Positions 21,955 through 42,354 of a stretch of 52,382 nucleotides of DNA are shown here, piece by piece. The notes below the pieces were generated by a model. It was given only the letters and a program-made list of their open reading frames with translations. It searched no databases and was not told where the DNA came from. The translations under genes were made by a program, and so were the position numbers. Position 1 is the first letter of the stretch. The number at the start of each line of letters is the position of its first letter. This DNA comes from a virus, in IMG/VR virus record IMGVR_UViG_3300045988_148619; one strand, given 5' to 3'.

Positions 21955-21986
21955 GTATATGTTCAGTTTTCAAGGGTTTGTGTGAC
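21955..21986 (-). promoter_or_regulatory. Bipartite promoter-like motif copy (GTCACA-N15-TGWAC-CTAWAY)
   Basis: Minus strand GTCACAcaaacccttgaaaacTGAACATATAC, 35 nt upstream of ATG 21919. Confidence 0.6.
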
Positions 21987-22200
21987 CAAAGCTAGAACTA
22001 TGTGTACTTAGATATTCCAGTTTATTCCTCTTAGCTTAATTTTTATTATTGTATGTGTTCCAGTTTTATGTTAAAATACTGTTTAATGATGTGTACCTGT
22101 GTTGACTATCTATAATAAAACAAATAACATACACAGCAACACACATTAGGGAATAGGAAAATATTTACATGGGGATGTAAAAAGGAGTAATGACAACAAC

Positions 22201-22599
22201 ATGAAAAGGATTGAATTAATTGAAATCACACATGGTAACACAAAAGAAGCTGGAACATCATTTGACCAGTTATTCAGGAATAATGATATTTACTGTAAAT
22301 TTAAATTGGCTGACAGAATGAAAGAAAGGGGGCTAACAGTAAGAAGATTAGCAGAGCTTTCAGGGCTAAGACTTGCAACAATATCTGAATTAATGAATGG
22401 TAAAAAAGGGCTTGTGAATCTTCAGCACATAGCTGTTTTGATGCTAGTTTTAGGATTATCAGATATAAATGATATAGTTGAGATATACATTAGTGACAAA
22501 TTAAAAGAACAGTTTACAGCAGAAACAACTCAATGGATAAAAACAGGTGAACCACCTCAAAGAGTTTATGATGCTTCAGAAATACTAAATGGCAAGTAA
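22201..22599 (+). CDS. XRE-family HTH transcriptional regulator, the likely lysogeny repressor
   Basis: 132 aa and one of only five credible plus-strand genes. RGLTVRRLAELSGLRLATISELMNGKKG is an HTH_3-type motif. It is divergent from the early operon. Confidence 0.65.
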   Translation: MKRIELIEITHGNTKEAGTSFDQLFRNNDIYCKFKLADRMKERGLTVRRLAELSGLRLATISELMNGKKGLVNLQHIAVLMLVLGLSDINDIVEIYISDKLKEQFTAETTQWIKTGEPPQRVYDASEILNGK

Positions 22600-22622
22600 C
22601 TTAATACTTGCCATTTTTCTAT

Positions 22623-23114
22623 TTATCCAATCTTATAGCCAGCTTCCCCTACAAGAACACCATCCCTATAGAACCTTTCCACTAGCTCACCAGTTTCTTT
22701 ATGCAGGTAGTACTTACAAACTAAGTCCCCACCATTTTCTTCTCTTTGGAACTCTAAATCAGAATCTTTATAAACTGATTTAATCTCTTTTCTTCCTATT
22801 GAGTCAGCTTCCCCTTTGGCTCTAGCCCTTGAGTAGTCATCCATGAAGCTTTTGTTTTCATTGTCCACTGCTTTCTTAATGTTTCCTTTTTCATCAAGCT
22901 CAACAGCCACCTTGAATATTTCAGGCACTCCCTCATGCTCTACATTTAAATAGTGCATTTCTTCACCTACTTTGAAAACAAGACCTATTTCAGCATCTTT
23001 TATTTTGAATTGAGTTTCAGGGATTCCAGCCCTTTGTTGTATATCTGTTGTAACCTCTTTTATTAATTTTGGCAGTTTATTTAATGATGTTTCACCTTTA
23101 AATTTTATTATCAT
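22623..23114 (-). CDS. Hypothetical protein
   Basis: 163 aa, convergent with the repressor gene. Confidence 0.5.
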   Translation of the reverse strand: MIIKFKGETSLNKLPKLIKEVTTDIQQRAGIPETQFKIKDAEIGLVFKVGEEMHYLNVEHEGVPEIFKVAVELDEKGNIKKAVDNENKSFMDDYSRARAKGEADSIGRKEIKSVYKDSDLEFQREENGGDLVCKYYLHKETGELVERFYRDGVLVGEAGYKIG

Positions 23115-23131
23115 ATGGTTTTGATCCTCTC

Positions 23132-23470
23132 TTATAATTTAGTTTCTTTAATTTTGTATTCCTCTATAACACATTCTACTGAGCAGAAGCTCAAGCCATC
23201 AGCATGACTTTTATATGCTTCATATTCAGGAAGTAATGGCAATCCACACACCTCACAATATTCTGAAGTAGTACTTTCTATTTCTTCAATCTCATGCCAA
23301 TCTAAAGCACAGTATAGGTCACAGAATTGACCTTCACCATCTTCATAAATATCCTGACCTTCTTTCAAAGGGTCATCACAGCAGAAGCAATAGCCTACTA
23401 TATCAGGTTCCCTGTAATAAGGCTCAGCTGTTATGTAGCCATCAATTATATTTGAATCTCTAAAAGCCAT
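23132..23470 (-). CDS. Cys-rich protein with two FCS/TRASH-like zinc-binding motifs
   Basis: 112 aa. It carries CFCC...FCDLYC and CEVC...FCSVEC. Confidence 0.5.
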   Translation of the reverse strand: MAFRDSNIIDGYITAEPYYREPDIVGYCFCCDDPLKEGQDIYEDGEGQFCDLYCALDWHEIEEIESTTSEYCEVCGLPLLPEYEAYKSHADGLSFCSVECVIEEYKIKETKL

Positions 23471-23498
23471 TGTAAGCCCTCCCTATTAATTTATAGAT

Positions 23499-23530
23499 AA
23501 TTAGGTTCATGTGCTTCCAGTTGGTGTGAC
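23499..23530 (-). promoter_or_regulatory. Bipartite promoter-like motif copy (GTCACA-N15-TGWAC-CTAWAY)
   Basis: Minus strand GTCACAccaactggaagcacaTGAACCTAATT, 28 nt upstream of ATG 23470 and preceded by GGGGTGGGG. Confidence 0.6.
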
Positions 23531-23542
23531 CCCCACCCCTAT

Positions 23543-23568
23543 AAAAAAGAACAGGCTTTCACCTGTTC
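23543..23568 (-). terminator. Intrinsic terminator after the DNA polymerase gene
   Basis: Minus strand GAACAGG tgaaag CCTGTTC, followed by TTTTTT. Confidence 0.75.
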
Positions 23569-23580
23569 TGTTATTTTTTT

Positions 23581-23598
23581 TTGAAAGTTATTTTTCAA
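23581..23598. repeat. 18-bp palindrome copy (TTGAAW-N6-WTTCAA family)
   Basis: ttgaaagttatttttcaa, straddling the polymerase stop codon. Confidence 0.8.
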
Positions 23599-25906
23599 AA
23601 GCCTTTCTTCCACAACCAGCCTTGACCCAATCATCAAAGCTAACACCTTGACCCCATACAGCTGATACTTCAACATCACACTTCATAGGGATTGATAATT
23701 TAACAGCCCTTTTCTGAATCTCAGCTATTTCTTGGACTTCCTCTTTTGTAGCTGTTGCTGGTATTTCTAAAAGCACTTCATCATGGATAGTTCCAATTAT
23801 ATCCCAGCCTTCTTTGTCCTTGATATGTCTGTATATATCAACCATAGCCTTTTTCATAATATCAGCTGAGCTACCTTGGATAACAGCATTTATGGACTGT
23901 CTAGCAACTCTGTTATAGTCTTTAGCAACAGCCCAATAATCCATTTTAGCCTGTCTTGATAGATTCTTTTCCTGCCATACATTGAAATTCTCTTTACCTA
24001 GATGTTTCTGAATGGCCTTGTGTCTTAAATGGTAACTCTTTGCTATTTGCTGATGACCAAGGAATCTTCTTTTTCTTCCAAACATTGTTTGAACAAATCC
24101 AAATTTATCAGCATGGGCATTAGTTTCTTTAAACCAGTTATCCATTGTAGGATAGGCTTCCTTGAAGTCAATATATATTTGTTCTGCTTCTTGTAGTGAT
24201 AGGCTGAAACTTTCAGCCAGTGACATTGAGCTGATTCCATACATCATTCCAAGTAAAACTACCTTAGCCATCTTTCTCCATTTAGACCCATCACCACATT
24301 CCTCTATTGGTTGTTTAAAGGTCTTGGAAGCAATCTCACTATATAAGTCCCTACCCTCTAAATACACTTCCATGAAATGTTCATCTTGAGATATGTGAGA
24401 AAGGAATCTAGGCTCAATTTGAGAGTAGTCTGACCCTATTATGATTTTATCTTCAGGAGCCACAAACATTTGTCTTGCTGGGTATGGTAGATTCTGAAGG
24501 TTAGGATTATTAGAAGCAAATCTTCCTGTTACTGTAGCTGACTGATTAAATGAACCATGTAACCTCCCATCAGCTCCCACCTTGTTTGGTAATGGCTCTA
24601 TATATGTTGTAAGAAGTTTATTCAACTCTCTATACTTCAATAGAACAGTTATATAATTTACTTTCTCAATCTTACTTCCCCAATCTCTAACAATCTTTTT
24701 AAGTGTTTGGGCATCTACCTTTCCTTTATATTCATCTATAACACCCCACTGGTTATAAATAACTTCAGCTAATTGTTGATTAGAGTTTATATTTATATCA
24801 CCAAATCCTTCTGCTATCTTGCTTTGAAGCTCAGCCACTTCTTCCTCTAGTTCCTTTTTGTATTTTTCTGCAAAGCCTAGATCAATCAGGAAGCCTTTCT
24901 TCTCCATAGCTATGCAAACTTCTGTTATAGGCAATTCTATATTAAAATATAAGTCCTTTAATTGAGGGATTCTGTCAAACTGTTCTAAGACCCAACAACC
25001 AAATTTATAAGTTAAATGGGTATCTTTACAAGCATATACAGTCCCAATGTCTAAAGGTGTTTTCTCAAAGCCACCCTTACCAAACAGTTCCTCATAAGTC
25101 ATTGATTTATCTTCAAATCCAAAGAACTTACCATACTTTGTTGCTAGGTTCTTCAGTGCAAAGCTTGGCTCATTCTCATTAAGCAAGTGCATAGCCACCA
25201 TAGTGTCCAAGTATAGACCTTGAAGTTCTATTCCTTCTTTTCTCAGCACATGAACATCAAACTTTGAATTGTGTAGCATCTTCTTAATGTGTTTATTTTC
25301 TAGTATAGGTTTAAGGCTTTCAAACACTATTACAGGATCTAGCTGTTCATCTTCCAACTCATGCCTAACTGGAATGTAACAATGGTAATCAGCCTTTGGT
25401 AGTGTAAGAGATATTCCAACAATAACATCTTTGCCCCATATATCAACTCCTGTGGTTTCTGTATCAACAGCCAGTACTTCTTCAAATCTTAGTAAATATT
25501 TTAAATGTCTAAATTGTTCCCATGTTGTTATGCAATGGTAATTTGCTGGGCAATCTCTGACCATATCTTTAATTATCTGTTCTTTTCTAACCTCCATTAG
25601 AACCTTATACAGCCCTAGTGCTTTAGTCTTTGTGAACTTGCTTAGTGAATCTACCCCTGAAGGTATTTCACCAACCTCTATAGCCTGTTTAACCTGTAAC
25701 AGCTTGGCTCTGTCTGAATCAGTAACCTTAGTCTGAAATATAGCCTTCTTAATAGTTCCTGTGTGGGTCTTATACCCTGTTTCCCAAACCTCAGCCCATG
25801 TTGGCTCATATTTAGCCATCTTCTTTTTCTCTGTAGCTTTCTTGACCCTCTGCTGTGCTTGGGTTTCCTTATTGGATTCTAGTTTTAGATTCAATTCTAA
25901 ATTCAT
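23588..25906 (-). CDS. polA: Family A DNA polymerase with a 3'-5' exonuclease domain
   Basis: 772 aa. Exo I reads LAVDTETTG. Motif A reads IIGSDYSQIEPRFLSHISQDE. Motif B reads RKMAKVVLLGMMYG. Motif C reads IGTIHDEVLLE. Confidence 0.9.
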   Translation of the reverse strand: MNLELNLKLESNKETQAQQRVKKATEKKKMAKYEPTWAEVWETGYKTHTGTIKKAIFQTKVTDSDRAKLLQVKQAIEVGEIPSGVDSLSKFTKTKALGLYKVLMEVRKEQIIKDMVRDCPANYHCITTWEQFRHLKYLLRFEEVLAVDTETTGVDIWGKDVIVGISLTLPKADYHCYIPVRHELEDEQLDPVIVFESLKPILENKHIKKMLHNSKFDVHVLRKEGIELQGLYLDTMVAMHLLNENEPSFALKNLATKYGKFFGFEDKSMTYEELFGKGGFEKTPLDIGTVYACKDTHLTYKFGCWVLEQFDRIPQLKDLYFNIELPITEVCIAMEKKGFLIDLGFAEKYKKELEEEVAELQSKIAEGFGDININSNQQLAEVIYNQWGVIDEYKGKVDAQTLKKIVRDWGSKIEKVNYITVLLKYRELNKLLTTYIEPLPNKVGADGRLHGSFNQSATVTGRFASNNPNLQNLPYPARQMFVAPEDKIIIGSDYSQIEPRFLSHISQDEHFMEVYLEGRDLYSEIASKTFKQPIEECGDGSKWRKMAKVVLLGMMYGISSMSLAESFSLSLQEAEQIYIDFKEAYPTMDNWFKETNAHADKFGFVQTMFGRKRRFLGHQQIAKSYHLRHKAIQKHLGKENFNVWQEKNLSRQAKMDYWAVAKDYNRVARQSINAVIQGSSADIMKKAMVDIYRHIKDKEGWDIIGTIHDEVLLEIPATATKEEVQEIAEIQKRAVKLSIPMKCDVEVSAVWGQGVSFDDWVKAGCGRKAFEK

Positions 25907-25938: not shown

Positions 25939-25970
25939 GTCTAGGTTCACCCTAGCCTATTGGATGTGAC
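25939..25970 (-). promoter_or_regulatory. Bipartite promoter-like motif copy (GTCACA-N15-TGWAC-CTAWAY)
   Basis: Minus strand GTCACAtccaataggctagggTGAACCTAGAC, 32 nt upstream of ATG 25906. Confidence 0.6.
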
Positions 25971-25986: not shown

Positions 25987-26020
25987 AAAAAAAAGACAGG
26001 CAATTAAGCCTGTCTTTTTT
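25987..26020. terminator. Bidirectional-looking intrinsic terminator at the end of the salvage operon
   Basis: aaaaaaaaGACAGGCaattaaGCCTGTCtttttt. Confidence 0.75.
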
Positions 26021-26252
26021 ACTCTCTATTACTTTTTATAAAATAATCATGGACTACAGTTAGCCCCTTCCAAAGCAATATTGCTATACCCACTATTTGA
26101 AGTGGCACCATAGGTAACCCATAATATATAAGAATTGAATTTAATAATACTGTAAGTAAAGCACACATAAGGAACACACCACATATTATTACTAAACCAG
26201 CCCCTACAATTAAACCAGCACCTATTAATAAATTCTTTGTTGATTTCTTCAT
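26019..26252 (-). CDS. Small membrane protein with two predicted TM helices
   Basis: 77 aa with a GGGGTGA RBS. It has hydrophobic stretches LLIGAGLIVGAGLVIICGVFLMCALL and LQIVGIAILLW and lies directly after the transporter gene. Confidence 0.5.
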   Translation of the reverse strand: MKKSTKNLLIGAGLIVGAGLVIICGVFLMCALLTVLLNSILIYYGLPMVPLQIVGIAILLWKGLTVVHDYFIKSNRE

Positions 26253-26262
26253 ACAATCACCC

Positions 26263-27432
26263 CTATATCATAAGACCTATAACAGCACCAGTTAATAAGT
26301 TTACTGCTGTAGCTGTTAATAATGCCTTAACACCTAATTTAGCAACCACCCCAACTTTCTCAGGAGCAACAGCTGAATAACCACCTATTAATATTCCTAT
26401 TGAACCTATTCCAGCAAACCCACATAATGCCACTGTTACCATTGCTTTGGCTTGTGTTCCTAACATAGCAAATTGAGGTAATGCAAAGGCAACTGCTTCA
26501 TTAGTAACCAATTTAGTAGCTAGTATTTCAGAAGCTAAAGATACATCTGAAGCTGGTACCCCCATAATAACAGCTAATGGCTTAAATACTATACCTAATA
26601 TACTTTGCATAGTAACACCTTCAAAGAACAGCCCTATAAAGTTGTTTATCATAAATACTACAGATAAGAACACCATTAAAGCTACTGATATTCCTATAAC
26701 CCCTTTAAATCCAGCTGTGGCATAATTCATCATTGTTTCTGTTGCATTTATACCTTTATCTGTAGATTCAACCTCTATTACTTCATTAGTGTATTTAGTA
26801 GGCATTAGTATTTGAGTTAATACAAATGTAGAAAATACAGTTAAAGGCATTGATACAAGAATCCATTCCATAGAAGCCCCATAGCCAACATAAAGACCAA
26901 CAACTGAAGCTGATATTGAAGTCATACCACCAACTAAAGTGGCAAATATAACTGAATCAGAAGCTTTAGGTAAATATGATTTAGTTACAAATAAAGATTC
27001 TGATTGACCTAAAAACATATTAGTAACACCATTTACAGCTATTAAAGTGTCTACCTTTAAAACCTTAGCTACTGTGTTTCCTACAACAGCAATAAACTTT
27101 TGTAATATCCCAAAGTGGAATAATAACCCCATGATTGCTGATATAAACACTATAGGCAATAAACTATTTATGAAGAATACATAGTTGTCTGATATACCAC
27201 CAAACACAAAATTAATTCCTTCTGTAGCCTGAGATAATAACCATGTAACACCATTAGAAGCAAGTTCAACTAATTTCCATAGGGGTGTTTTTATTAAAGC
27301 TAATGCCAAAACTAATTGACCAGCAAAAGCACAACCCACTGACTTCCAATTTATCTCCTTCTTATTACTTGAAAATAGGTAGGCAATGCCTACAATTACA
27401 AATATTCCAACAAATCCAAATATCTTTTCCAT
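26263..27432 (-). CDS. nupC: NupC-family (concentrative) nucleoside transporter
   Basis: 389 aa with an AAGGAG RBS. Blocks EGINFVFGG, PIVFISAIMGLL, LGQSE, ILGIVFKPLAVIMGVPASDV, ATKLVTNEAVA and FAGIGSIGI line up with E. coli NupC blocks recalled from memory. Confidence 0.85.
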   Translation of the reverse strand: MEKIFGFVGIFVIVGIAYLFSSNKKEINWKSVGCAFAGQLVLALALIKTPLWKLVELASNGVTWLLSQATEGINFVFGGISDNYVFFINSLLPIVFISAIMGLLFHFGILQKFIAVVGNTVAKVLKVDTLIAVNGVTNMFLGQSESLFVTKSYLPKASDSVIFATLVGGMTSISASVVGLYVGYGASMEWILVSMPLTVFSTFVLTQILMPTKYTNEVIEVESTDKGINATETMMNYATAGFKGVIGISVALMVFLSVVFMINNFIGLFFEGVTMQSILGIVFKPLAVIMGVPASDVSLASEILATKLVTNEAVAFALPQFAMLGTQAKAMVTVALCGFAGIGSIGILIGGYSAVAPEKVGVVAKLGVKALLTATAVNLLTGAVIGLMI

Positions 27433-27471
27433 TTCACAATCTCCTTATTATTTAATTTTCAAAGTTCAAGG

Positions 27472-27765
27472 CTAGGAGATCAATCCTCTAAGCCTTAGCA
27501 AATATATAGCCTTACTTACCACTAAAGGGTCATTGAAAGGCAAGTCAAACCCTGAAGCATGAGTTAATTTCTTAAACTCTTTAGCATAAACAACCTTGTC
27601 AGCCAGTTCAGGATAGTCTTTCTGAAGTCTTATCAACTCATTACACCACTTATCAAAAGTTGAATCCTCTATGATGTTGGAATCAAACCTGTAATAAATA
27701 CAGGAATGAACCAATATCTGAAGTCTTCTTCTTTGGATTAGCTCCATAATCTTTTTATCTTCCAT
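27472..27765 (-). CDS. Hypothetical 97-aa protein resembling domain Ia of NAD-dependent DNA ligase
   Basis: LQILVHSCIYYRFDSNIIEDSTFDKWCNELIRLQKDYPEL follows the LigA N-terminal pattern YY..d.p.isD.eYD.l..eL..lE..yPel. No adenylation domain is present. Confidence 0.3.
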   Translation of the reverse strand: MEDKKIMELIQRRRLQILVHSCIYYRFDSNIIEDSTFDKWCNELIRLQKDYPELADKVVYAKEFKKLTHASGFDLPFNDPLVVSKAIYLLRLRGLIS

Positions 27766-28408
27766 CTCTCAGTTCCTCTAGTTTCTTATCTATCAACTGA
27801 AGGACTTCCTTTTTATCTTCTTCATTATTTACAAAGTCATATTTATCAATGTCTATAACTAAGACCTCTGAAGCCTTATAATGATTAAACACCCAATCAT
27901 CATAACCTTCCCACAATGCCCTGTAATAATCTTTTAGGCTTTCATCAATTTCAAAGTCCCTACCTCTTTTTGCAATCCTTTCAAGTATTGTTTCAAAACT
28001 CCCTGAAAGGTATATAAACAGGTCAGGGCTTTTCTTAGGCAGTTCTTCTAGTTCCTCCATCATATTCTCTAATAGGCTTTCATAAATACCAAATTCAAGG
28101 TCTGATATTCTTCCCATATCTTTATTTACTTTGGCAAAATACCAATCTTCATATAGTGACCTATCAAGAACATTATCTTGATTAGTTAAAGCCTGTTTGA
28201 TACTTTTAAATCTTGTGTCTAAGAAATACAGCTGTAATAAAAATGGGTATCTCTTAGCTTGGATTTCTTCATCACTGGCTGTATAGAATAAAGGTAATAC
28301 TGGATTATCCTCAACACTTTCATAAAATACTTCAGACCCTAGGTGTTCCCCTAACAGCCCTGCTAAGCTAGATTTACCAGCCCCTATCATTGCTCCAATT
28401 ACTATCAC
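27755..28408 (-). CDS. Deoxynucleoside kinase
   Basis: The likely start is GTG at 28408, 7 nt after GGTGGA, forming a GTGA overlap with the upstream small ORF. It has the P-loop GAMIGAGKSS, an LDRSLYED (ERS-like) motif and the lid RIAKRGRDFE. Confidence 0.8.
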   Translation of the reverse strand: MIVIGAMIGAGKSSLAGLLGEHLGSEVFYESVEDNPVLPLFYTASDEEIQAKRYPFLLQLYFLDTRFKSIKQALTNQDNVLDRSLYEDWYFAKVNKDMGRISDLEFGIYESLLENMMEELEELPKKSPDLFIYLSGSFETILERIAKRGRDFEIDESLKDYYRALWEGYDDWVFNHYKASEVLVIDIDKYDFVNNEEDKKEVLQLIDKKLEELRDGR

Positions 28409-28542
28409 AATAACATCCACCTATCTTTCTGTTTTTCCAATTCTTCAATTTCTTGTTTTTGTTTTTGAATAATATCTTTCAATTCTTCAATTATTTTATC
28501 TTGGTTCTTAATGTGATTTTCTATTGCTTTTAACTCTAGCAA
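28405..28542 (-). CDS. Possible 45-aa coiled-coil micro-ORF, below the ORF-track size cut-off
   Basis: TTG at 28542 lies 5 nt after GGGGGTG. The frame reads LLELKAIENHIKNQDKIIEELKDIIQKQKQEIEELEKQKDRWMLL. Its stop overlaps the dNK GTG start as GTGA. Confidence 0.3.
   Translation of the reverse strand: MLELKAIENHIKNQDKIIEELKDIIQKQKQEIEELEKQKDRWMLL
28465..28482. repeat. 18-bp palindrome copy (TTGAAW-N6-WTTCAA family)
   Basis: ttgaataatatctttcaa, between the TK and dNK genes. Confidence 0.7.
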
Positions 28543-28553
28543 ATCAACACCCC

Positions 28554-29096
28554 CTACCCTATAAAATCAAAGTAGCATTTCCTACATAAAGGAACATACA
28601 GGTCTTTGGCTCCAAGCTGTACTACAGAATCATTTTCAACCCTTTTCCCTGACATGACTGCATCTTCACCACATTCCTCACATATAGCTTTCAACTTATT
28701 GACCTTATCAGCCATAGCCATTAAATCCATAGCTGTTCCAAATCCTTGACCTTTAAAGTCCATATCTAAACAAGATACATAGATTGTTTTACCAGCCTTC
28801 AGAAGCCCATTTATAGATTGTAGTATCACTTTATCAAAGAATTGTGCTTCATCTATCAGTATGACCTCATAGGCATCTATATCAACTTCTAAGGGTTTAG
28901 AAGTATCTACAGCCACAGCCTTTACTCTTAGATTTGAATGTGTTACAATTTCATCTTCTGAATACCTTGTGTCCATACTAGGCTTTATATACAAAACATT
29001 TTGCCCAGCTCTCATGTGTTTTTCACCCTGAGATATTAACAAAGTGGATTTACCTGAGAACATAGCCCCAGTGTTAACTGTTAGTGTTGCCTTCAT
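28554..29096 (-). CDS. tdk: Thymidine kinase
   Basis: 180 aa. It has the P-loop GAMFSGKSTLLI, Walker B ILIDEAQFF, and the zinc motif CEECGE...CRKCY. Confidence 0.9.
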   Translation of the reverse strand: MKATLTVNTGAMFSGKSTLLISQGEKHMRAGQNVLYIKPSMDTRYSEDEIVTHSNLRVKAVAVDTSKPLEVDIDAYEVILIDEAQFFDKVILQSINGLLKAGKTIYVSCLDMDFKGQGFGTAMDLMAMADKVNKLKAICEECGEDAVMSGKRVENDSVVQLGAKDLYVPLCRKCYFDFIG

Positions 29097-29343
29097 CTTC
29101 TACCTCCCTAGTGATTAAAACTTTTCTTCTTGGTATAAGTACAGCATCTAAAACTTGGTCTATGTCTGATATGATATTAAATTCCTCAACCACATCACCA
29201 GCATTACTACCCTCTAGGCTTACAAGACCATACCTATGGTCTCCATAAGGTCTTTGGAACTCTACCACCATACAAGGTTTTCTGTTGTATAAAACTATAT
29301 CCCCAGTGTAGCAATCACACTTTTTAGTTAGTCTTACCTTCAT
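29074..29343 (-). CDS. Hypothetical protein
   Basis: 89 aa, the first gene of the salvage transcription unit. A GGGCAGGTGA RBS precedes it. Confidence 0.5.
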   Translation of the reverse strand: MKVRLTKKCDCYTGDIVLYNRKPCMVVEFQRPYGDHRYGLVSLEGSNAGDVVEEFNIISDIDQVLDAVLIPRRKVLITREVEDEGNTNS

Positions 29344-34039: not shown

Positions 34040-34999
34040 CTATAACTTTACACTTAGACCATATTCAACTTTATTTTTGTAGGCATATTCAACCTGTTCC
34101 TTGGTCATTTCATTAACATCTTTCTGACCAGTAAATGCTATCCTAAAACATTGATAGAACCCCATAAACTCATTCCTTAATACTTCAGCAAATCTATGAC
34201 CTACAGTGTCATTATCAGTTGCTATTATCAGCCTTTCTATACTGGAGTTTAATAATAAGTTTTTCTGCTTGTCATTTATTGATCCCCCACCAAAAGCAAC
34301 TGCTGGGTAGCCTAAAGACCATAAGTACAAGGCATCTATTTCTGATTCTACAGCCCATACTTCTTTTATCTTATACTGCTTAATTAGGAACAAACCATAC
34401 ACATGGTCCTTGATTGGCTGACCACCTGAGCTGAACCAAAATTCTTTACCAAGCATACTCCTATATTTTATATTGATAATTCTTCCTTTGCTATCATGCC
34501 AAGGGATAGCCACAGCATCACCTTCTTTTCCAATACCTGTTTCAAGTTGCCTTTGAGCCTGTTCAGATATTCCTCTACTTAAAAGATATACTGAAGGTTT
34601 CCCAACTACATCCTCATATTTTTCTTGACCCAAAACAGCAACTTCAGGGACTTCCACTTGAAGATTTAAATTTAACTGTAACCCCTCTGTATCATCTAAT
34701 AGATGTGTGTATTTATCCAATAGATAGTTAGCTGTATCTTCATAGCTCTCACCCCTAAAGTGGGCTAATAGTGTTGTGAAGCTCCCCTTTCTATCTGATT
34801 CATTATCTGCCCCTGAATCTACCCAACTACCATTATCCAAATTAACAGCCCAAGATGGGTGGTTCTCATTCCTAAAAGGGCTACAGGCCTGAACCTTTTC
34901 ACCCCTTACCCTTACCTTCTCTAGTCTGTCCATGTATGGCTCCAACTCTGCTGGATAATCCACTTCAATCATATAACCATTTACTTTTAATTTTTCCAT
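34040..34999 (-). CDS. DNA primase (Toprim domain, DnaG-like)
   Basis: 319 aa. The zinc-binding-like segment reads CSPFRNENHPSWAV. The Toprim segment reads VWAVESEIDALYLW...LIIATDNDTVGHRF. Confidence 0.75.
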   Translation of the reverse strand: MEKLKVNGYMIEVDYPAELEPYMDRLEKVRVRGEKVQACSPFRNENHPSWAVNLDNGSWVDSGADNESDRKGSFTTLLAHFRGESYEDTANYLLDKYTHLLDDTEGLQLNLNLQVEVPEVAVLGQEKYEDVVGKPSVYLLSRGISEQAQRQLETGIGKEGDAVAIPWHDSKGRIINIKYRSMLGKEFWFSSGGQPIKDHVYGLFLIKQYKIKEVWAVESEIDALYLWSLGYPAVAFGGGSINDKQKNLLLNSSIERLIIATDNDTVGHRFAEVLRNEFMGFYQCFRIAFTGQKDVNEMTKEQVEYAYKNKVEYGLSVKL

Positions 35000-35029: not shown

Positions 35030-35061
35030 CTATAGGTTCAAGCTTAATTCCTGACTGTGAC
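35030..35061 (-). promoter_or_regulatory. Bipartite promoter-like motif copy (GTCACA-N15-TGWAC-CTAWAY)
   Basis: Minus strand GTCACAgtcaggaattaagctTGAACCTATAG, 30 nt upstream of ATG 34999 and preceded by GGGGGTGGGGGAGG. Confidence 0.6.
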
Positions 35062-35082: not shown

Positions 35083-35100
35083 TTGAAAAGTATCTTTCAA
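35083..35100. repeat. 18-bp palindrome copy (TTGAAW-N6-WTTCAA family)
   Basis: ttgaaaagtatctttcaa, between the helicase terminator and the promoter-like motif. Confidence 0.8.
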
Positions 35101-35111: not shown

Positions 35112-35133
35112 AAAAAAGGAAGCTCTAGGCTCC
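35112..35133 (-). terminator. Weak intrinsic terminator after the helicase gene
   Basis: Minus strand GGAGC ctaga GCTTCC (imperfect stem), followed by TTTTTT. Confidence 0.4.
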
Positions 35134-35188
35134 CTATCTTCCATTTATATGATTATTTATTATATCTGCTGTACTCATTAAATCCTCC

Positions 35189-36454
35189 TTATATGAAATC
35201 TACTATAGATGGCTCTTTTATATACCCAAGGTCAAAATCACACTGTAGTTCCAATATTTCATCTACATGGGGTGTTCTTGCTTTAGCCAGTCTTATCTTA
35301 CCCACCCCTTGGTGCTGGTCAAAGTTTAACACTGTACAAGCATCCTGAATAACTGCAACTGTTTCTGAATACTGGTCAATCCTTGGAGGTTCAACTATTC
35401 TTGACCCTGTTTCATCTTCTGACCTATTTTCTTTTTCTGCTGAAGTTGGAACCTGATGAACAACTACACCAACCACACCATACTTTCCAAATAGCTGTCT
35501 TAATCTCCTTGAAGTATTAGTCATGTTGTTTCTGTTACTATCAGTCCCTTTATGATTCATAAGGCCAAAACCATCTATTATAACCATTTTGATATTGGGA
35601 TTCATCTGAAGGTCTGCTTCTATACCTTCTATTGATAATCCTTTTGGTAAGTCCCCCATAGTCTTTACTATATAAGGGATGTCAACATCATCATTGAATC
35701 TTTCTAAGTAGTTTAAATATTGTGCTTCCTGTTGCAGATCCCCCACCTTTAGCTCACTATTTCTGAAGTGACCATGTAGAGTGTCTAGTCTTTGAAGCTG
35801 TTGCTTTTTAGATAACTCAGGAGAATAATGAAGAACACCTTGACCTGAAGCCCATGCACTGATTCCTATGTCTGAAGCAATCCATGATTTACCCCTGTTA
35901 GTGTATGCCTGAAGTAAAACATAATCACCAAGCTCAAAGCCCCCACCAAGCCACTCAGTAAGTGATGGGTAAGGTGTAGGTATATATTGATAGGTTCTTT
36001 GCTCCTTGCTCTCCATATACCATTGTTTTCTTTCTGCTCCATTTGTAGCAAAGTTAGTCCCAGCAAATACTTCTGAACTTGTCACCTCTTTTATCTTAGA
36101 AGTTTCCTCATGTAACCAGCTTATAAATTCTGACCCATTTAAAGTACTGAATTTTTCAGTTGCTTCTTTTTGTAGAAGTTCAAAAGACCTTCTTTTGGCA
36201 TTATCTGACTTTAATTTCTTACACATATAAGCCACATTATCAGGGATTTCAGGCATATATTCAAAATTAGGACATTCAGCAACTACTTCAGTGTAGGCTG
36301 GAGCCTGTCCAAACTCTTTGATATATCTTCTAATGAATAAATATGTATCTTTTTGTAGGGTAAAGTCTGCTGTAGTTATATTGAACTTATTTAATACAGC
36401 TGTGTTCCCTTCATCTAGTAATTTACTTAATAATCTATTTTCTATATTAGCCAT
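35189..36454 (-). CDS. dnaB: Replicative DNA helicase (DnaB-like)
   Basis: 421 aa. It has Walker A LLQAYTNRGKSW and Walker B-like VIIDGFGLM. Its ATG overlaps the loader stop as TAATG. Confidence 0.75.
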   Translation of the reverse strand: MANIENRLLSKLLDEGNTAVLNKFNITTADFTLQKDTYLFIRRYIKEFGQAPAYTEVVAECPNFEYMPEIPDNVAYMCKKLKSDNAKRRSFELLQKEATEKFSTLNGSEFISWLHEETSKIKEVTSSEVFAGTNFATNGAERKQWYMESKEQRTYQYIPTPYPSLTEWLGGGFELGDYVLLQAYTNRGKSWIASDIGISAWASGQGVLHYSPELSKKQQLQRLDTLHGHFRNSELKVGDLQQEAQYLNYLERFNDDVDIPYIVKTMGDLPKGLSIEGIEADLQMNPNIKMVIIDGFGLMNHKGTDSNRNNMTNTSRRLRQLFGKYGVVGVVVHQVPTSAEKENRSEDETGSRIVEPPRIDQYSETVAVIQDACTVLNFDQHQGVGKIRLAKARTPHVDEILELQCDFDLGYIKEPSIVDFI

Positions 36455-37221
36455 TAAAACAGCCCTCCCTTTCTGTGGTCTTTTCCTGTAAAAGCAACTT
36501 GGAAGCAGTCACCTTCTATTCTTGATGCTATCCTATCCCCTAGTAACTCTTTTACCACAGGCAAAGGATGATTAGATGTATATATAGTGGCTAACCCTTC
36601 TGTCACTCTATAATCAACTATTTCAAATAGCTCATTTTTAAATGCTTCAGTTGTATCTCTAATAGCAATATCATCTACCACTAACAGCTCAACCTTCTTC
36701 ATTCTATTTTTAAACTTATAAAACACATCAGAAGCTTGTTGCTGTGTTGCCACAGACCCTCTAAACTGTGCATTATATTTATTTTGAAACTCAGAAGCCT
36801 TTATAAATAAAGCTGGATTCTGTTTTAATTCCTTTTTCTTTTGTAGGTGTAATTTTACTGAAGCCAGCACATACTCATTTAAGATTGTAATTGCTGTGGT
36901 AGTCTTTCCTGTACCTGTTCCAAAAGTATTCTCCTTGCTTGGTACAGAAAATAAGAATAACCCCATCCCCTTTTCTTCAACATAGGCTGATATATTAGAA
37001 ACATATTTTTCAGCTATTGTGTAGGCTCTAGGGTTATCAATTTTAGTTGGTAAATTATCTATTAAACATCCTTTATACTTGGCTGGTATTCCTGAAGCTG
37101 TCCAAAAGCCTGAAGTCCCATCTTGACCATGTAACATTACAAAAGGATAACAATGCCTAGAGCATCTTTCTGAATCTTTATTCTTACATTTCCTATTAAA
37201 CATACAATTTTCACTGAACAT
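36454..37221 (-). CDS. DnaC/IstB-like AAA+ helicase loader
   Basis: 255 aa. It has Walker A GTGTGKTTTA, Walker B LLVVDDIA and an N-terminal Cys-rich segment CKNKDSERCSRHC. Confidence 0.7.
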   Translation of the reverse strand: MFSENCMFNRKCKNKDSERCSRHCYPFVMLHGQDGTSGFWTASGIPAKYKGCLIDNLPTKIDNPRAYTIAEKYVSNISAYVEEKGMGLFLFSVPSKENTFGTGTGKTTTAITILNEYVLASVKLHLQKKKELKQNPALFIKASEFQNKYNAQFRGSVATQQQASDVFYKFKNRMKKVELLVVDDIAIRDTTEAFKNELFEIVDYRVTEGLATIYTSNHPLPVVKELLGDRIASRIEGDCFQVAFTGKDHRKGGLF

Positions 37222-37256: not shown

Positions 37257-37288
37257 GTATAGGTACAGCATTAAATTTTATTTGTGAC
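37257..37288 (-). promoter_or_regulatory. Bipartite promoter-like motif copy (GTCACA-N15-TGWAC-CTAWAY)
   Basis: Minus strand GTCACAaataaaatttaatgcTGTACCTATAC, 35 nt upstream of ATG 37221. Confidence 0.6.
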
Positions 37289-38503: not shown

Positions 38504-38537
38504 TAAAAAAAAGACAGCTTTATTAGGCTGTCTTTTC
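38504..38537. terminator. Bidirectional intrinsic terminator between convergent genes
   Basis: aaaaaaaaGACAGCtttattagGCTGTCtttt. Confidence 0.7.
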
Positions 38538-39311
38538 TGCTTCTCTTTCCATTAGTCTTAATTGGGTATTAGTTTGTATTTTATTTATAAGATATTGCTT
38601 TTTAAATAAAGCATAACCATTTATTATTTTAGTGCTATCTGATTCTACTTCATCATATAAAAGGAAAGTGTGACCAGTGAAGTCCCTTTCTTTATATATT
38701 TGATGATTTATCTTAATCCATTTAGGTCTAGCAAACATCTGACCCTTTTCCTGTTTAAAGTCCAACTGTTTCCCTTCCTTTTTAAACAAGAAATCAATGG
38801 CATACTCTGAGTTCTTAGTTATATGCAATTTATGTGATACTCTATGCTTATAGTCTAAGGCAACTAAATCAATTCCAGCATAGTCCAACTTATCACTCTT
38901 TTTCATAACAAAGTTAGGATATATTTCCCTGATAGAAAGCTCTGTGTGAAGTTCATTTATAAAAGAGATGTAACTCCTTAATAATCTTTGCTTAATGCCC
39001 TTTTCCACTGTTTCTGTCCATTTGAAACACACATTATTTCTAGCCCTCCACACTTCACTGGCATAGCTCTTTTTTACATCTTTCATCTGAAAGGCAATAA
39101 ATTCTTGGGGTGTTGGAATCCTCCCAAGCATTTTATGAGCCTTATCAAAAGTGTGATGGAAGCTCCTACCTAAGACCCTATTATTCTGTTCCATTAATCT
39201 ATAGTTAGGGTCTTTCTGCTCTGCTTTAGTCATTCTTATATTAGGTATTCTGTAAGCCTTCTGTTTCAGTAGAAACTCTAATCTAGTAGTGTTTAGTCTT
39301 TGTAAGTTCAT
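38523..39311 (-). CDS. Hypothetical protein
   Basis: About 262 aa from ATG 39311. The ORF-track TTG at 39329 overlaps the upstream gene. I recognise no family with confidence; AGIDLVALDYK gives only a weak hint of a PD-(D/E)XK motif. Confidence 0.45.
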   Translation of the reverse strand: MNLQRLNTTRLEFLLKQKAYRIPNIRMTKAEQKDPNYRLMEQNNRVLGRSFHHTFDKAHKMLGRIPTPQEFIAFQMKDVKKSYASEVWRARNNVCFKWTETVEKGIKQRLLRSYISFINELHTELSIREIYPNFVMKKSDKLDYAGIDLVALDYKHRVSHKLHITKNSEYAIDFLFKKEGKQLDFKQEKGQMFARPKWIKINHQIYKERDFTGHTFLLYDEVESDSTKIINGYALFKKQYLINKIQTNTQLRLMEREAEKTA

Positions 39312-39318
39312 GCTGTGC

Positions 39319-39651
39319 CTACTTTCCAAGACCTAAGCTTTTAAAGAACTTATCAATTACTCCCTTTACTTCATCTTCAGTCATTTGTTTCCCATGTGAA
39401 TTTGTTTCTAACTCCTTAGCCACTTCAGAAACTTCCTCAGCTAGTTCCTCTAATAAAGAAGATTGTTTTATTAAGAATCCATTGAAAGCTGTTATAACTG
39501 ACTTGTGGGCTTCATATTCAGCCCTAGGCATAAATCCAAACTGATTTATTACTTCTAGTTGTGCCTGTGCTTGTACTAGCTGTGTGAAGCTTTCAGCAGT
39601 CCCTTCTTTCATTTCCTCTATTTGTGATACTAAATCTTTTATCATTTCCAT
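39319..39651 (-). CDS. Hypothetical coiled-coil protein
   Basis: 110 aa, the first gene after promoter-like motif j. Confidence 0.5.
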   Translation of the reverse strand: MEMIKDLVSQIEEMKEGTAESFTQLVQAQAQLEVINQFGFMPRAEYEAHKSVITAFNGFLIKQSSLLEELAEEVSEVAKELETNSHGKQMTEDEVKGVIDKFFKSLGLGK

Positions 39652-39682: not shown

Positions 39683-39714
39683 ATTTAGGTACAGGACTGA
39701 TTTCTATTTGTGAC
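39683..39714 (-). promoter_or_regulatory. Bipartite promoter-like motif copy (GTCACA-N15-TGWAC-CTAWAY)
   Basis: Minus strand GTCACAaatagaaatcagtccTGTACCTAAAT, 31 nt upstream of ATG 39651. Confidence 0.6.
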
Positions 39715-39781: not shown

Positions 39782-39799
39782 TTGAAAAATATCTTTCAA
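39782..39799. repeat. 18-bp palindrome copy (TTGAAW-N6-WTTCAA family)
   Basis: ttgaaaaatatctttcaa. A degenerate second copy, ttgaaaagtagtattcag, lies at 39758-39775. Confidence 0.8.
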
Positions 39800-39810: not shown

Positions 39811-39838
39811 AAAAAAAAGACACTGATTACTCAGTGCC
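39811..39838 (-). terminator. Intrinsic terminator overlapping the parR-like stop codon
   Basis: Minus strand GGCACTGA gtaa TCAGTGTC, followed by TTTTTTTTT. Confidence 0.7.
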
Positions 39839-40186
39839 TTGTTCATTTCTTTTACTCATTATTCCTTGAATCTTCATTTTATTAGCCTTGGGTTTTGGTG
39901 GCTCAGCTGGTTCAGTAGTTACTGCTGTTTCATTAGTCCCAGCACCTTGTTGACTTTGGATTAGTTTTATTAGGGCTTCTATATCTAGCCCTGTTGGATT
40001 TGTATTTAGTTGTGACATGGCTGTGGGCTGTGGCCTTCTACCAGCCATATCATCTCTGATTAATTGCTTAACATAATTTGAAAAACTCCCCTGACTATCA
40101 GCCCACTCAATTAGGTCTAGTTCATTATCCATGAAAGATACATTAATTATGTATCTTCCATCTTTTCTAGGCTTTCTAATCTTCAT
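39827..40186 (-). CDS. parR: ParR-like centromere-binding protein (ribbon-helix-helix-like N-terminus)
   Basis: ATG at 40186 lies 6 nt after GAGG. GRYIINVSFMDNELDLIEWADSQGSFSNYVKQLIRDDM has a beta-helix-helix pattern. The gene follows the ParM-like gene. Confidence 0.5.
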   Translation of the reverse strand: MKIRKPRKDGRYIINVSFMDNELDLIEWADSQGSFSNYVKQLIRDDMAGRRPQPTAMSQLNTNPTGLDIEALIKLIQSQQGAGTNETAVTTEPAEPPKPKANKMKIQGIMSKRNEQGTE

Positions 40187-41090
40187 ATAATGCCTCTGCA
40201 ACAGCTTGATAAACTTCTTGGTTTATATATTGGCTGTTTTCTATTAATTCAGCTTTTGGGAAGTGTTTCTTCCAGTATTTAAAGGTATTAATAGCACCCC
40301 CACCAAATACTTGGATAGCATCAGCACCTACATAGTCAATGTTTTTAGTGAATGATATTAAATCATATACTAAACCATCAAAGGCACTGTCCACTTCTTT
40401 CTCAACACTTACTTGACCAGTTTTTGTGTTCATAACTGGGTTGCTGACATATCTTTCAACATCAGGTGGATTTAAATGTGTTTTATGTTTTTCATTAATC
40501 AGCTGTGTTAGGTCAGTGTACACTTTATTCATAGAACCATTATTTGTATAATGATTAGCTATTTCTTGCTCTCTCCACTCTATGATATTTATTGTACCCA
40601 TGCCCACATCTATAGTAATTATATGTCTATCATCATTATCCCTAATTGGCAATGCTCCTTCTATAAATACTTTCATATTCTTAAAATCTATTATGTAATG
40701 CTTACCATCAACAGTGATTTCTTCAACTCCTAAGCCATTTAAATAGGCTTCAACATCATCAGCTTGGTTATTGTAGTGGTCTACAGGTATTCCCACAACT
40801 AGATTAGCCTCTAATGGATTTTTTGCCACTGGTGTAGCTAAAGCTGTAGCTGTTAGAAGTGCTATTTTATATTCCTCTGTAAAGTATCTATCTTCTGAAA
40901 TGAATGAATGGCCTTCACCTACTACATAAGAAGCTCCTTTATATATTACCTCATGAACCTCAGCTTTGTGCTTTATGTTGTAGCCATTTGCCTTTTGAAG
41001 TGTTCCCTGTCTTATCTTTGAAGCAAATCTGTTTCCTACTCCATACTTACAGTACCCATTTCCAATATCAAGTCCTTTTTTAATAATCAT
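40176..41090 (-). CDS. parM: ParM/StbA-type actin-like plasmid segregation ATPase
   Basis: 304 aa. The N-terminal phosphate-1 motif reads KGLDIGNGYCKYG. Internal motifs are ITIDVGMGTINI and VFGGGAI. Confidence 0.7.
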   Translation of the reverse strand: MIIKKGLDIGNGYCKYGVGNRFASKIRQGTLQKANGYNIKHKAEVHEVIYKGASYVVGEGHSFISEDRYFTEEYKIALLTATALATPVAKNPLEANLVVGIPVDHYNNQADDVEAYLNGLGVEEITVDGKHYIIDFKNMKVFIEGALPIRDNDDRHIITIDVGMGTINIIEWREQEIANHYTNNGSMNKVYTDLTQLINEKHKTHLNPPDVERYVSNPVMNTKTGQVSVEKEVDSAFDGLVYDLISFTKNIDYVGADAIQVFGGGAINTFKYWKKHFPKAELIENSQYINQEVYQAVAEALYED

Positions 41091-41214
41091 AATAAATTAC
41101 CTCTCTTTTCTTTATTCAATTTTATCTGTTTTGTGTTTTGATTTTTTGTTTTGTCAGTGGCTTGTCCCCCTGACACTATTTATATTATCACATACCCAAA
41201 ATTAATGCAATACT

Positions 41215-41430
41215 TTTTTATAGAAATTTATATATTTTTACATAAATTTATAGATTTTTATAGATTTTTCTATACAAGATTAGTGATTGCAATGGCTACA
41301 CATTTCTATAAATTTATAGATTTTTATAGATATTTATGTATTTTTCTATAAATTTTATATAAATTTCTATAAATAATACAGCTAATCCATTTCTATAAAT
41401 TTCTATACTTTTATATATTTTTCTATAAAA
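41215..41430. repeat. parC-like centromere: at least 10 copies of TTCTATAAA / TTTATAGAW in both orientations, upstream of the parM-like gene
   Basis: ttctataaa occurs at 41304, 41344, 41365, 41391 and 41421. ttctatac occurs at 41268 and 41401. Inverted tttatagat/tatagaaa copies lie at 41217-41330. Confidence 0.65.
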
Positions 41431-41457
41431 GACCCCCTCCCCCTATTTTTAAACAAC

Positions 41458-41486
41458 AAAAAAAGACAGGCATTTTTAAACCTGTC
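41458..41486 (-). terminator. Intrinsic terminator after the wHTH gene
   Basis: Minus strand GACAGG tttaaaaatg CCTGTC, followed by TTTTTTT. Confidence 0.75.
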
Positions 41487-41495
41487 CTGTATTTT

Positions 41496-42281
41496 CTAGC
41501 CCAATATACTGTCAAAAGCTGAATAATCATCTTCTAAATACTGTGCTGTAAGGTCTGCTAAAGCTTCTTTCTTAGCTTCTGCTTCCTGTTCTTGCTTCAT
41601 TTGTTGAAGTACATTGTTCCCTAACCAGCCACATAGCATAGGTATTGTAGGATATGGGAAGTTTGCACTGCTCCATTTAACCCTATAGTTCTTAATTGCA
41701 TATTCAATCATTGATAATATTGTTTCATCATCAAAGTTTGCCATTAATTTATTTTTGATCAGTGATAAGTCCCTTGCATATTTCACTAAATATTTAATCC
41801 CATATTCTTCTTCATACATGGAACAGAACTTACCAGCATAATCTTTGGCTGTTCTTTTCTTAGGTTCTTGGACATCCTCCTGTTCCACTGATAAATCACT
41901 TGTGCTGTTTTCTGTTTTCTCAACATTTAATTTATATACTGAAAACTTCTTTCTTCCACCAGCCTGTTCTAAGTCCCTAGCAAGGACTGGAACACCATTT
42001 ATTTTGGTAGTCAGAAGCTTATTAACTAGCTTATTTACTGTTGGCAATGAATACCCTGTAAGCTCTGCAAGTTTCCTTTGACTTGGGAAAGCTTCCCCTT
42101 CCCTGTCCATATATGAAGCTATGGCTAACAAGATTATAAATTCACCAGCCCCAATCTCTTTCAGAATACCTTGCTGTATTGCATGAATGTCTAGCTTAAT
42201 GCTTCTATCTTCAACATAAGATTGGTTTATAACATCATACTGTTGAATTAGCTCCACCTGTAAAAAAGAATTATTGTTCAT
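41496..42281 (-). CDS. Winged-HTH protein, a possible replication-origin-binding or organiser protein
   Basis: 261 aa with a GGTGGTGG RBS. FPSQRKLAELTGYSLPTVNKLVNKLL is a wHTH of the kind found in phage replication initiators. Confidence 0.45.
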   Translation of the reverse strand: MNNNSFLQVELIQQYDVINQSYVEDRSIKLDIHAIQQGILKEIGAGEFIILLAIASYMDREGEAFPSQRKLAELTGYSLPTVNKLVNKLLTTKINGVPVLARDLEQAGGRKKFSVYKLNVEKTENSTSDLSVEQEDVQEPKKRTAKDYAGKFCSMYEEEYGIKYLVKYARDLSLIKNKLMANFDDETILSMIEYAIKNYRVKWSSANFPYPTIPMLCGWLGNNVLQQMKQEQEAEAKKEALADLTAQYLEDDYSAFDSILG

Positions 42282-42322
42282 ATAGAACCACCACCTTACA
42301 CTAATATTTAATTTTCACAAGA

Positions 42323-42354
42323 TAATAGGTACATGATTTATTTCTAGGTGTGAC
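42323..42354 (-). promoter_or_regulatory. Bipartite promoter-like motif copy (GTCACA-N15-TGWAC-CTAWAY)
   Basis: Minus strand GTCACAcctagaaataaatcaTGTACCTATTA, 41 nt upstream of ATG 42281. Confidence 0.6.

Follow-up and report, generated by a model that had tools for sequence, protein, structure and literature searches.

The window analysed here is the whole of a viral DNA record of 52,382 nucleotides (nt) (IMG/VR record IMGVR_UViG_3300045988_148619), in which the replication genes are preceded by eleven copies of a bipartite motif, GTCACA-N15-TGWAC, and in which a gene on the minus strand (33015–33710) encodes a 231-aa protein, assigned by its sequence and a structural model to the sigma-70 family and proposed as the reader of this motif. 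The explanation that we hold to be likely is that the eleven sites are middle (replication) promoters, read by the host core RNA polymerase in combination with the phage 231-aa sigma. From the nucleotide sequence we infer the promoter status of the sites, the identity of the sigma that reads them, their register and start site, and the roles assigned below to a repressor and to a late regulator. The sigma family and the promoter sequence are undescribed, whereas the gene cascade is of a type familiar from other phages.

A rigidly spaced motif ahead of the replication genes

An exact search of the window found eleven matches to GTCACA-N15-TGWAC, all on the minus (coding) strand and all confined to 21.9–42.4 kb, compared with 0.03 expected from dinucleotide-preserving shuffles, which bears out the eleven copies of the original prediction, made from the sequence of the window alone. 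The constant gap of 15 bases that it had also claimed is confirmed by the same kind of search, with eleven matches for N15 and none for the other gaps tried (N10–14 and N16–21); a relaxed search allowing 2 mismatches added hits at background level only, none of them convincing. Alignment of the eleven sites extends the consensus to GTCACA-N15-TGWAC(C)TA.A.A.CTR, longer than had first been given, with nearly no information in the 15-nt gap. With positions numbered from 0 at the G of GTCACA, a T occupies position 35 in 10 of the 11 copies, and all eleven have a purine at position 36. The TA-containing hexamers that had been assigned to the copies are correct, but the copies at 21986 and 32996 read TGAACATATAC instead of TGAACCTA. 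The motif sites hold 11 of the 20 minus-strand GTCACA hexamers of the window and 9 of its 12 minus-strand TGWACCTA sequences.

All eleven sites are intergenic and gene-oriented, and each is followed within 28–52 nt by a start codon, as had been described, that has a Shine-Dalgarno sequence; the motif ends 28–41 nt short of the start codon at ten sites and, as read from the sequence, about 52 nt short of it at 32996. Intrinsic-terminator-like hairpins stand just upstream of six copies (23530, 25970, 29409, 31464, 35061 and 39714), in keeping with the claim that most copies follow the terminator of the previous unit, and a G-rich block (GGGGTGGGG or similar), said to precede several, was counted ahead of four of the eleven. 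By exact search and annotation the structural and lysis genes of the window hold no copy, and the late half is indeed free of the motif. Placement, orientation and terminators, together with the footprinting and the relatives described below, all fit the idea of a dedicated class of putative promoters that would divide the replication genes into about eleven terminator-bounded units.

Conservation of the architecture in related phages

A search of related phages, proposed along with the original prediction, found the same architecture in L001, L014–L016, L018 and the cultured phage FA67. In L001, a metagenomic relative whose sigma is 51% identical to that of the window, four copies read GTCACA-N15-TGAACCTAAAT; L014, L015 and L016 (38–41% identical) carry five to seven copies each of GTCACA-N15-TKAATTTA, and L018 (27% identical) carries three of GTCACA-N15-TCTATTWAC. 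FA67 (28% identical) has eleven copies of GTCACA-N14-CCTACATA, with the second box one base closer, of which ten stand ahead of replication genes and one ahead of a homing-endonuclease gene, while the structural part has none; all but one of the 12 CCTACATA octamers of the FA67 genome fall inside the motif. The core common to all motif lineages consists of GTCACA, a fixed distance and then A-Y-N-T-A-N-A, and a motif copy precedes the sigma gene in every one of these six relatives. For three of the four L001 copies, which precede the sigma, SSB-like and nuclease genes, an orthologous copy exists in the window, and footprinting of these three pairs showed 41 of 42 positions identical in the boxes (98%) against 20 of 45 in the gap (44%; Fisher p = 1.4e-8). 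An exact-motif scan of IMG/VR returned two contigs of the same phage and three contigs with one hit each (L005, L006 and L008); the single hits were taken as chance, these contigs having no further copies.

The sigma proteins of L017 and L020 are 25–32% identical to that of the window, and these two relatives have no GTCACA, nor was any clear other repeated motif seen in them by eye. Five of the six GTCACA lineages share ERKxVQR(A/T)K as the C-terminal helix of the sigma and the sixth, L018, has ERKKASRAM, whereas the helix of the GTCACA-less L017 and L020 reads ERQIAERTR or NRRIAYMTR. Such a contrast would be expected if sigma region 4 reads GTCACA; it is correlative and corresponds to one phylogenetic split.

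The phage-encoded sigma factor

Taken alone, the window protein matches Pfam Sigma70_r2 weakly (E 0.0026, below the cut-off) and phrog_351 (RNA polymerase sigma factor) with an E value of 1.4e-10. An exhaustive search of 1.84 billion representative proteins found 49 relatives, 29 of which make up the family profile and alignment. Pfam Sigma70_r2 is matched by five of these 29 members (best E 1.4e-5), the region 2 motif FD..G..FLTYW is seen in their alignment, and the best matches of the 29-member profile in the PDB are to region 2 of SigI6 (E 3.8e-4), SigI1 (1.1e-3), SigK, RpoS and FliA; a single-sequence search of the PDB gave spurious hits only. Among the NCBIfam families BacL2 was best, followed by SigK, SigH, SigI and SigF/G, all below their cut-offs.

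The single-sequence AlphaFold2 (AF2) model of the protein was unusable (predicted local distance difference test, pLDDT, of 35) and was replaced by one based on the 29-sequence alignment (pLDDT 88), which has two helical domains, with a low-confidence linker at residues 129–153 followed by helices at 154–226. Each match listed by Foldseek against the PDB is a sigma factor or a sigma-containing RNA polymerase complex, SigH being aligned over 230 columns, and the C-terminal helix-turn-helix (HTH) domain of the model aligns to sigma-4 of SigH and of sigma-A. Judged by these profiles and this model, the open reading frame (ORF) at 33015–33710 is a genuine two-domain member of the sigma-70 family, belonging to a family without a name, and is predicted to bind core RNA polymerase and to initiate transcription. 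The earlier statement that the phage encodes such a factor with a motif copy upstream of its gene is upheld by the profile matches, the AF2 model, the Foldseek matches and the motif copy at 33740–33771 (copy 5). In FA67 the sigma is annotated as a hypothetical protein. Scans of IMG/VR, JGI metagenomes and GTDB genomes with the sigma alignment returned near-identical copies or nothing, and no host genome was found among them.

A sigma-A-type promoter with putative operators upstream of the sigma gene

The original prediction overlooked a near-consensus sigma-A promoter and a set of operators upstream of the sigma gene. The promoter (TTGACA-17-TACAAT, 33996–34024, minus strand) lies in the unusually long intergenic gap between the primase and sigma genes, upstream of motif copy 5, and is the best coding-strand sigma-A match in 21–41 kb. 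With a sigma-A promoter ahead of the sigma gene the bootstrapping problem would therefore be solved. A sigma-A-type promoter can be recognised upstream of the sigma gene in six of the six motif lineages, near-consensus in the window and in FA67: TTGACT-17-TATTAT in L001, TTGATA-17-TACAAT in L014, TTGAGT-17-TACAAT in L015 and L016 (weaker, found by eye and under the 10/12 threshold used in the scan for the relatives' promoters), TTGAAA-18-TATACT in L018 and TTGACA-17-TGtTATTAT in FA67. The last of these is the only coding-strand promoter of at least 11/12 within the FA67 replication block, and the other strong coding-strand sigma-A promoters of FA67 are all found elsewhere, within one cluster of small ORFs that are presumably early.

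Three operator-like palindromes, GTTMC-N8-GKAAC, are found on the minus strand at 33978–33995 (abutting the -10 element), 33861–33878 and 33797–33814, with a hairpin and T-run at about 33891–33932 between the first and the second. The same palindrome lies behind sigma-A-like promoters at 17592–17609 (ahead of a cluster of small ORFs) and at 43411–43428 (ahead of the Rep3 gene), and in the gut lineages (L001 and L014–L016) two or three palindromes overlap or follow the sigma-A promoter of the sigma gene. These sites are probably the operators of the element's repressor, for which a Cro/CI-type HTH protein encoded on the plus strand at 22201–22599 (Pfam HTH_26, E 9e-9; phrog_3, transcriptional repressor) is a candidate. 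Weaker sites of the GTTMC-N8-GKAAC type also occur at 14252–14269 and 14419–14436.

Proposed promoter geometry

The Shine-Dalgarno sequence of FA67 begins as early as positions 35–36 from the G of GTCACA, and therefore a start would have to lie at or before about position 34–35 and a -10 element to end by about position 28. With GTCACA as the -35 element, FA67 would have a 16-bp spacer and TACATA as its -10, a one-base shift of the register being possible either way; by alignment, and with a 17-bp spacer, the -10 would be WACCTA in the window, AATTTA in L014–L016 and TATTTA in L018. The proposed -10 boxes have in common an A as second base (-11) and TA as the last two bases, and the geometry appears to be canonical for the sigma-70 family with a private sequence. 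The distance of 20–21 nt that the original prediction judged too long for a -35/-10 pair is obtained only if CTAWAY (26–31) is taken as the -10, and the other register gives 16–17 bp. None of the eleven motif sites passes a lenient sigma-A scan of the window (9 of 12), and the proposed -10, WACCTA, ends in A where the sigma-A element TATAAT ends in T; because of these two features the sites, as read from their letters, are not sigma-A promoters.

The proposed cascade and the alternatives to it

In the mechanism that we propose, sigma region 4 would bind GTCACA as the -35 element, a 17-bp spacer with TG as its last two bases would follow, the -10 element would be WACCTA at positions 23–28 with the invariant A at -11, and transcription would start at about position 36, at the conserved T-purine step, the expected location for a start. 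The cascade would begin when the host sigma-A RNA polymerase fires the promoter at 34024–33996, gated by the GTTMC-N8-GKAAC operators, which are presumably bound by the phage repressor in the plasmid or lysogenic state. Phage sigma produced from this promoter would then switch on the second promoter of its own gene (33771), in a positive-feedback loop, together with ten further terminator-bounded units (initiator, loader, helicase, primase, SSB-like protein, nucleases, salvage, polymerase and deoxynucleoside monophosphate (dNMP) kinase), and the sigma-region-4-only protein of the last unit may start the late stage. The domains recognised in the ORFs scanned were ordinary ones of replication, structure or lysis, and none was that of an RNA polymerase.

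Several points weigh against this explanation. For all members of the system, promoter activity and the link between sigma and motif rest on correlation from sequence. The register is provisional, the proposed -10 ends in A and not in T, and in the window the TG abuts the hexamer and is not one base away from it. The contrast between sigma-4 and GTCACA is a single phylogenetic split, and the L018 sigma (P0028) keeps GTCACA together with its ERKKASRAM helix. The sigma unit is not strictly the sole one behind a host-type promoter, a weaker sigma-A-like site (22074–22045, 10/12) being present upstream of motif copy 11, and there are other small early genes driven by sigma-A (for example downstream of 17650), one of which could encode an alternative activator. 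Finally, two units in the replication block lack the motif, namely the actin-like ParM-type gene (40176–41090) and a methyltransferase gene (31543–32016).

The alternative that survives best, although we consider it unlikely, is that the sites are promoters read by sigma-A with a phage activator on GTCACA (T4 MotA/AsiA-like or class II) or by a host alternative sigma, the 231-aa sigma serving another class such as the late genes. GTCACA agrees with TTGACA at four of six positions, yet all eleven sites fail the lenient sigma-A scan, and in the TA.... register (27–32) 10 of the 11 window sites end in A where sigma-A needs T. Positions 26–31 of FA67 read TATAAT in five of its eleven sites, a register in which transcription would begin within or beyond the Shine-Dalgarno sequence. 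Small sigma-A-driven early genes without an assigned role exist, one of which could encode an activator, and the window also encodes a sigma-region-4-only protein, but the ORFs scanned gave no hit to MotA or AsiA, and within the block the sigma gene is the sole gene directly behind the conserved sigma-A promoter. In favour of this alternative, the analysis identified no class of late promoters to which the 231-aa sigma could be matched; against it stands the variation of the downstream box by phage lineage, with canonical sigma-A promoters kept elsewhere, for which a change in a phage factor is the simpler account.

Two narrower candidates were rejected. A T4-type middle promoter is contradicted by the A that closes the TA.... 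register in 10 of 11 sites and by the lack of MotA/AsiA domains among the ORFs scanned. The sporulation factors sigma-K and sigma-E have the -10 consensus CATAnnnTA, which the FA67 sequence CATATAATA resembles; as readers of the sites they were discarded because the spacing from the AC of GTCACA is 18–19 nt and not 16–17, the window motif is without CATA, and replication genes would not be placed under a mother-cell sigma that acts late.

That the sites are not promoters at all and serve replication, partition, packaging or recombination proteins, or RNA processing or translation, seems very improbable: other repeat systems do occur here (Rep3 iterons, parC-like repeats and a 23-copy palindrome, TTGAAA-N6-TTTCAA), so that not all intergenic repeats of the window are promoters, but the strict co-orientation with genes, the fixed short distance to the start codon, the position behind terminators, the dispersal over 20 kb ahead of replication units (origins, centromeres and packaging sites usually form a single cluster), the lack of any Rfam family match, and two conserved boxes around an unconserved gap of fixed length, which fit protein-DNA recognition at promoter geometry and not RNA structure, all argue against it.

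Returning to the explanation by middle promoters and a phage sigma, a broader claim can be made tentatively and with some doubt: the lineages may hold orthogonal sigma/promoter pairs, in which GTCACA and the spacing have stayed fixed down to about 26% protein identity and the -10 has taken on a new specificity no fewer than four times (WACCTA, AATTTA, TATTTA and TACATA), so that replication of a gut phage-plasmid would be insulated from sigma-A and entered via a repressor-gated sigma gene. If this is true, the choice between lysogeny or plasmid and lytic growth would come down to one operator-controlled promoter and a positive-feedback loop. If the explanation by middle promoters and a phage sigma is confirmed, the whole regulon (one sigma, eleven promoters and one operator-bearing sigma-A entry point) would be legible from sequence. 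It would be the regulon of an uncultured human-gut Clostridia phage-plasmid with a cultured relative, FA67 (C. tyrobutyricum), available for testing; it would name a sigma family annotated so far as hypothetical protein only, make the middle genes of related phages predictable from the motif and supply genetic tools for Clostridia with compact sigma/promoter pairs that are probably orthogonal to the host. The logic of an SPO1-type cascade would be a known principle extended, not overturned.

Comparison with known systems

Literature searches (GTCACA with phage sigma, FA67 and LysFA67) found no description of the promoter or of the sigma family, in line with the original prediction, in which the motif was not recognised from described phage promoter classes. 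The closest parallel in logic is offered by the middle promoters of SPO1 (AGGAGA-N17/18-TTTNTTT), which are read by gp28. As in SPO1, a private bipartite -35/-10 class with a non-sigma-A consensus stands ahead of the middle (replication) genes; the sigma gene would be transcribed early from a sigma-A promoter (in the window TTGACA-17-TACAAT, recognised by its sequence), and a further regulator would serve the late genes, for which the window has a candidate only. The two differ in promoter consensus and in the sigma gene of the window having its own motif promoter (putative autoregulation) and palindromic operators. Sequence kinship is at most very distant, the sole Okubovirus match being a 231-aa hypothetical ORF of Goe16 (31% over 113 aa), and SPO1 is a large virulent myovirus whereas the window looks like a temperate gut Clostridia phage-plasmid. 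In the SPO1 cascade, summarised in PMC13401047, the phage sigma replaces sigma-A on the host core RNA polymerase, a role that the window protein may share.

The two-domain sigma-2/sigma-4 arrangement in about 200–230 aa, a target promoter ahead of the protein's own gene, and rigidly spaced, highly specific boxes also recall the extracytoplasmic function (ECF, group 4) sigma factors. Membership was rejected: TIGR02937 is touched by only 3 of the 29 family members (E 0.0035 or weaker), and the motif has neither AAC in the -35 nor CGT in the -10. The nearest profile matches are SigI, SigK, SigH and BacL2, not ECF. The neighbours of the sigma gene are the primase and an SSB-like gene, and the scan of the neighbouring ORFs showed no anti-sigma domain.

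BacL2 (NF041508) is the best named family for 18 of the 29 members (best E 6e-10; for the window protein E 5.3e-7 over residues 70–224), and like the window protein it is a small sigma-like activator on a Firmicutes mobile element. It is described as positively regulating transcription of the Bac41 bacteriolysin operon on the Enterococcus faecalis plasmid pYI14 (bioRxiv 10.1101/2020.11.20.391417), and thus controls a bacteriocin operon and not a phage replication regulon; the window protein, at 29.7 bits, lies far under the 200-bit cut-off and was not assigned to the family.

The sigma-I factors of Clostridia and Bacilli (structures 8I23 and 8I24), which read promoters with an A-tract -35 and a CGWA -10 and have no sigma-4 domain (PMC10575876), give the best profile matches in the PDB, in region 2 only, and the TGWA of the motif is superficially like CGWA. 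The window protein differs in being modelled with a C-terminal HTH domain that aligns to sigma-4. Membership was set aside on the grounds that GTCACA is not an A-tract, the similarity is limited to sigma-2, and NCBIfam SigI is weak, in 3–7 of the 29 members; no RsgI-type anti-sigma domain was found among the ORFs scanned.

Phage-encoded sigma-like specificity subunits are also described (PMC8948821) in gp36 of phiEco32 and the sigma of phage 7-11, which redirect the RNA polymerase of the host to the middle and late promoters of the phage. These are proteobacterial podoviruses, and a search of a phage database with the window sigma gave no sequence match to them.

The eleven units

All copies being on the minus strand, copy 1 (42323–42354) heads the gene of an HTH_36/DnaD-like replication protein (41496–42281), and copy 2 (39683–39714), with a terminator upstream at 39817–39840, heads two genes without an assigned role (39319–39651 and 38523–39329). 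Copy 3 (37257–37288) heads the DnaC-like loader (36454–37221) and the DnaB helicase (35189–36454); copy 4 (35030–35061), behind a terminator at 35117–35135, the primase (34040–34999); copy 5 stands directly ahead of the sigma gene and may be autoregulatory; and copy 6 (32965–32996), a TGAACATATAC variant, heads the SSB-like gene (about 32238–32912). Genes of a PD-(D/E)XK nuclease, a RuvC-like resolvase and a methyltransferase (29448–31403) follow copy 7 (31433–31464; terminator upstream at 31514–31533), and a nucleoside-salvage unit of thymidine kinase, deoxynucleoside kinase (dNK) and NupC-like transporter (26019–29343) follows copy 8 (29378–29409; terminator at 29428–29449). Copy 9 (25939–25970; hairpin upstream at 25989–26020) heads the family-A DNA polymerase (23588–25906), copy 10 (23499–23530; terminator at 23548–23569) the genes at 23132–23470 and 22623–23114, and copy 11 (21955–21986), the other TGAACATATAC variant, the dNMP kinase (21347–21925) and the genes downstream. 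The second gene of this last unit (21034–21369, minus strand) encodes a 111-aa protein with sigma-70 region 4 only (Pfam Sigma70_r4, E 5.2e-7, 29.5 bits, above the cut-off of 24.1), which may be a candidate regulator of the next (late) stage.

The nucleoside-salvage module behind the motif sites, a complete one, combines a NupC-type transporter (26263–27432) with a thymidine kinase, a deoxynucleoside kinase and the dNMP kinase (28554–29096, 27755–28420 and 21347–21925), and the salvage genes of the relatives also include a nucleoside deoxyribosyltransferase and an acid phosphatase. The motif-less methyltransferase gene (31543–32016) has terminators on both sides and is missing from the near-identical contig L002; it and the ParM-like unit look like modules acquired or regulated separately. 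Immediately upstream of the copy at 42354 lies an AT-rich stretch of 116 nt (42359–42474), which is repeated with 82% identity in non-coding DNA ahead of the late genes (14548–14663).

Genome context

The two ends of the window (1–55 and 52328–52382) are identical over 55 nt, an assembly overlap that gives a circular genome of 52,327 bp, with nearly all genes on the minus strand. The replication and nucleotide block (about 21–42 kb) encodes the DnaD/HTH_36 protein, DnaC-like loader, DnaB, primase, sigma, SSB-like protein, PD-(D/E)XK nuclease and RuvC, together with methyltransferases, thymidine kinase, dNK, NupC-like transporter, PolA and dNMP kinase; the structural and lysis module is of siphovirus type (TerL, SPP1-like portal, tape measure, Dit, Tal, holin and amidase). 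A Rep3-type initiator gene (43435–44481, plus strand) has a perfect TTGACA-17-TATAAT promoter at 43371–43399 and six to seven 21-bp iterons (TGAAATATGACAAAAACATAA) upstream (43002–43169, and at about 43279), and 10-bp parC-like repeats (41201–41430) lie upstream of the actin-like ParM-type segregation gene. A resolvase-like gene (13109–13933) is also present and no integrase was seen among the window annotations; with its plasmid-style replication and partition genes the element looks like a phage-plasmid. Near-identical contigs come from human-gut metagenomes, and the nearest cultured phages are the Clostridium (tyrobutyricum) phages vB_CtyS-FA67 and FA70, with TerL 60% identical; megablast of the 22-kb block against GenBank phages, and Rfam and tRNA scans of the window, gave no matches.

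Between the terS-like gene (15486–15929) and the resolvase-like gene lies a 1.5-kb low-GC stretch (13934–15485) whose coding strand has no ORF of at least 60 aa. It contains four GTCACCCA repeats (14848–14871 and 15384), C-rich runs and several GTTAC-type half-sites, and could serve as a pac/cos site or in regulation. At the left end of FA67 there is a 24-nt direct repeat that contains GTCACC.

The palindrome TTGAAA-N6-TTTCAA occurs 23 times in the window at no more than 1 mismatch, against 0.74 expected, mostly in intergenic positions and often behind a terminator (for example at 824–841, 3518–3535, 4714–4731, 4749–4766, 10652–10709, 31477–31494, 35083–35100, 39782–39799 and 45545–45602). It lies either 10–65 nt upstream of a GTCACA site or 4–30 nt before the ribosome-binding site of a late gene (tape measure, portal, endolysin), and is found in L015, L016 and L018 too. 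Because its half-sites resemble a -35 hexamer, the 111-aa sigma-region-4-only protein might speculatively be its binder. Two such palindromes around ACAGCTGT make up a 64-nt repeat that is 94% identical between 10649–10712 (ahead of the portal gene) and 45542–45605 (ahead of the endolysin gene) and that may be a late-gene control element. Between the holin gene (45804–46262) and the endolysin gene (44518–45495) there is also a near-consensus extended -10 sigma-A promoter, TTGACC-17-TGnTATAAT (45757–45785, minus strand), such a strong host-type promoter being odd on a lysis gene.

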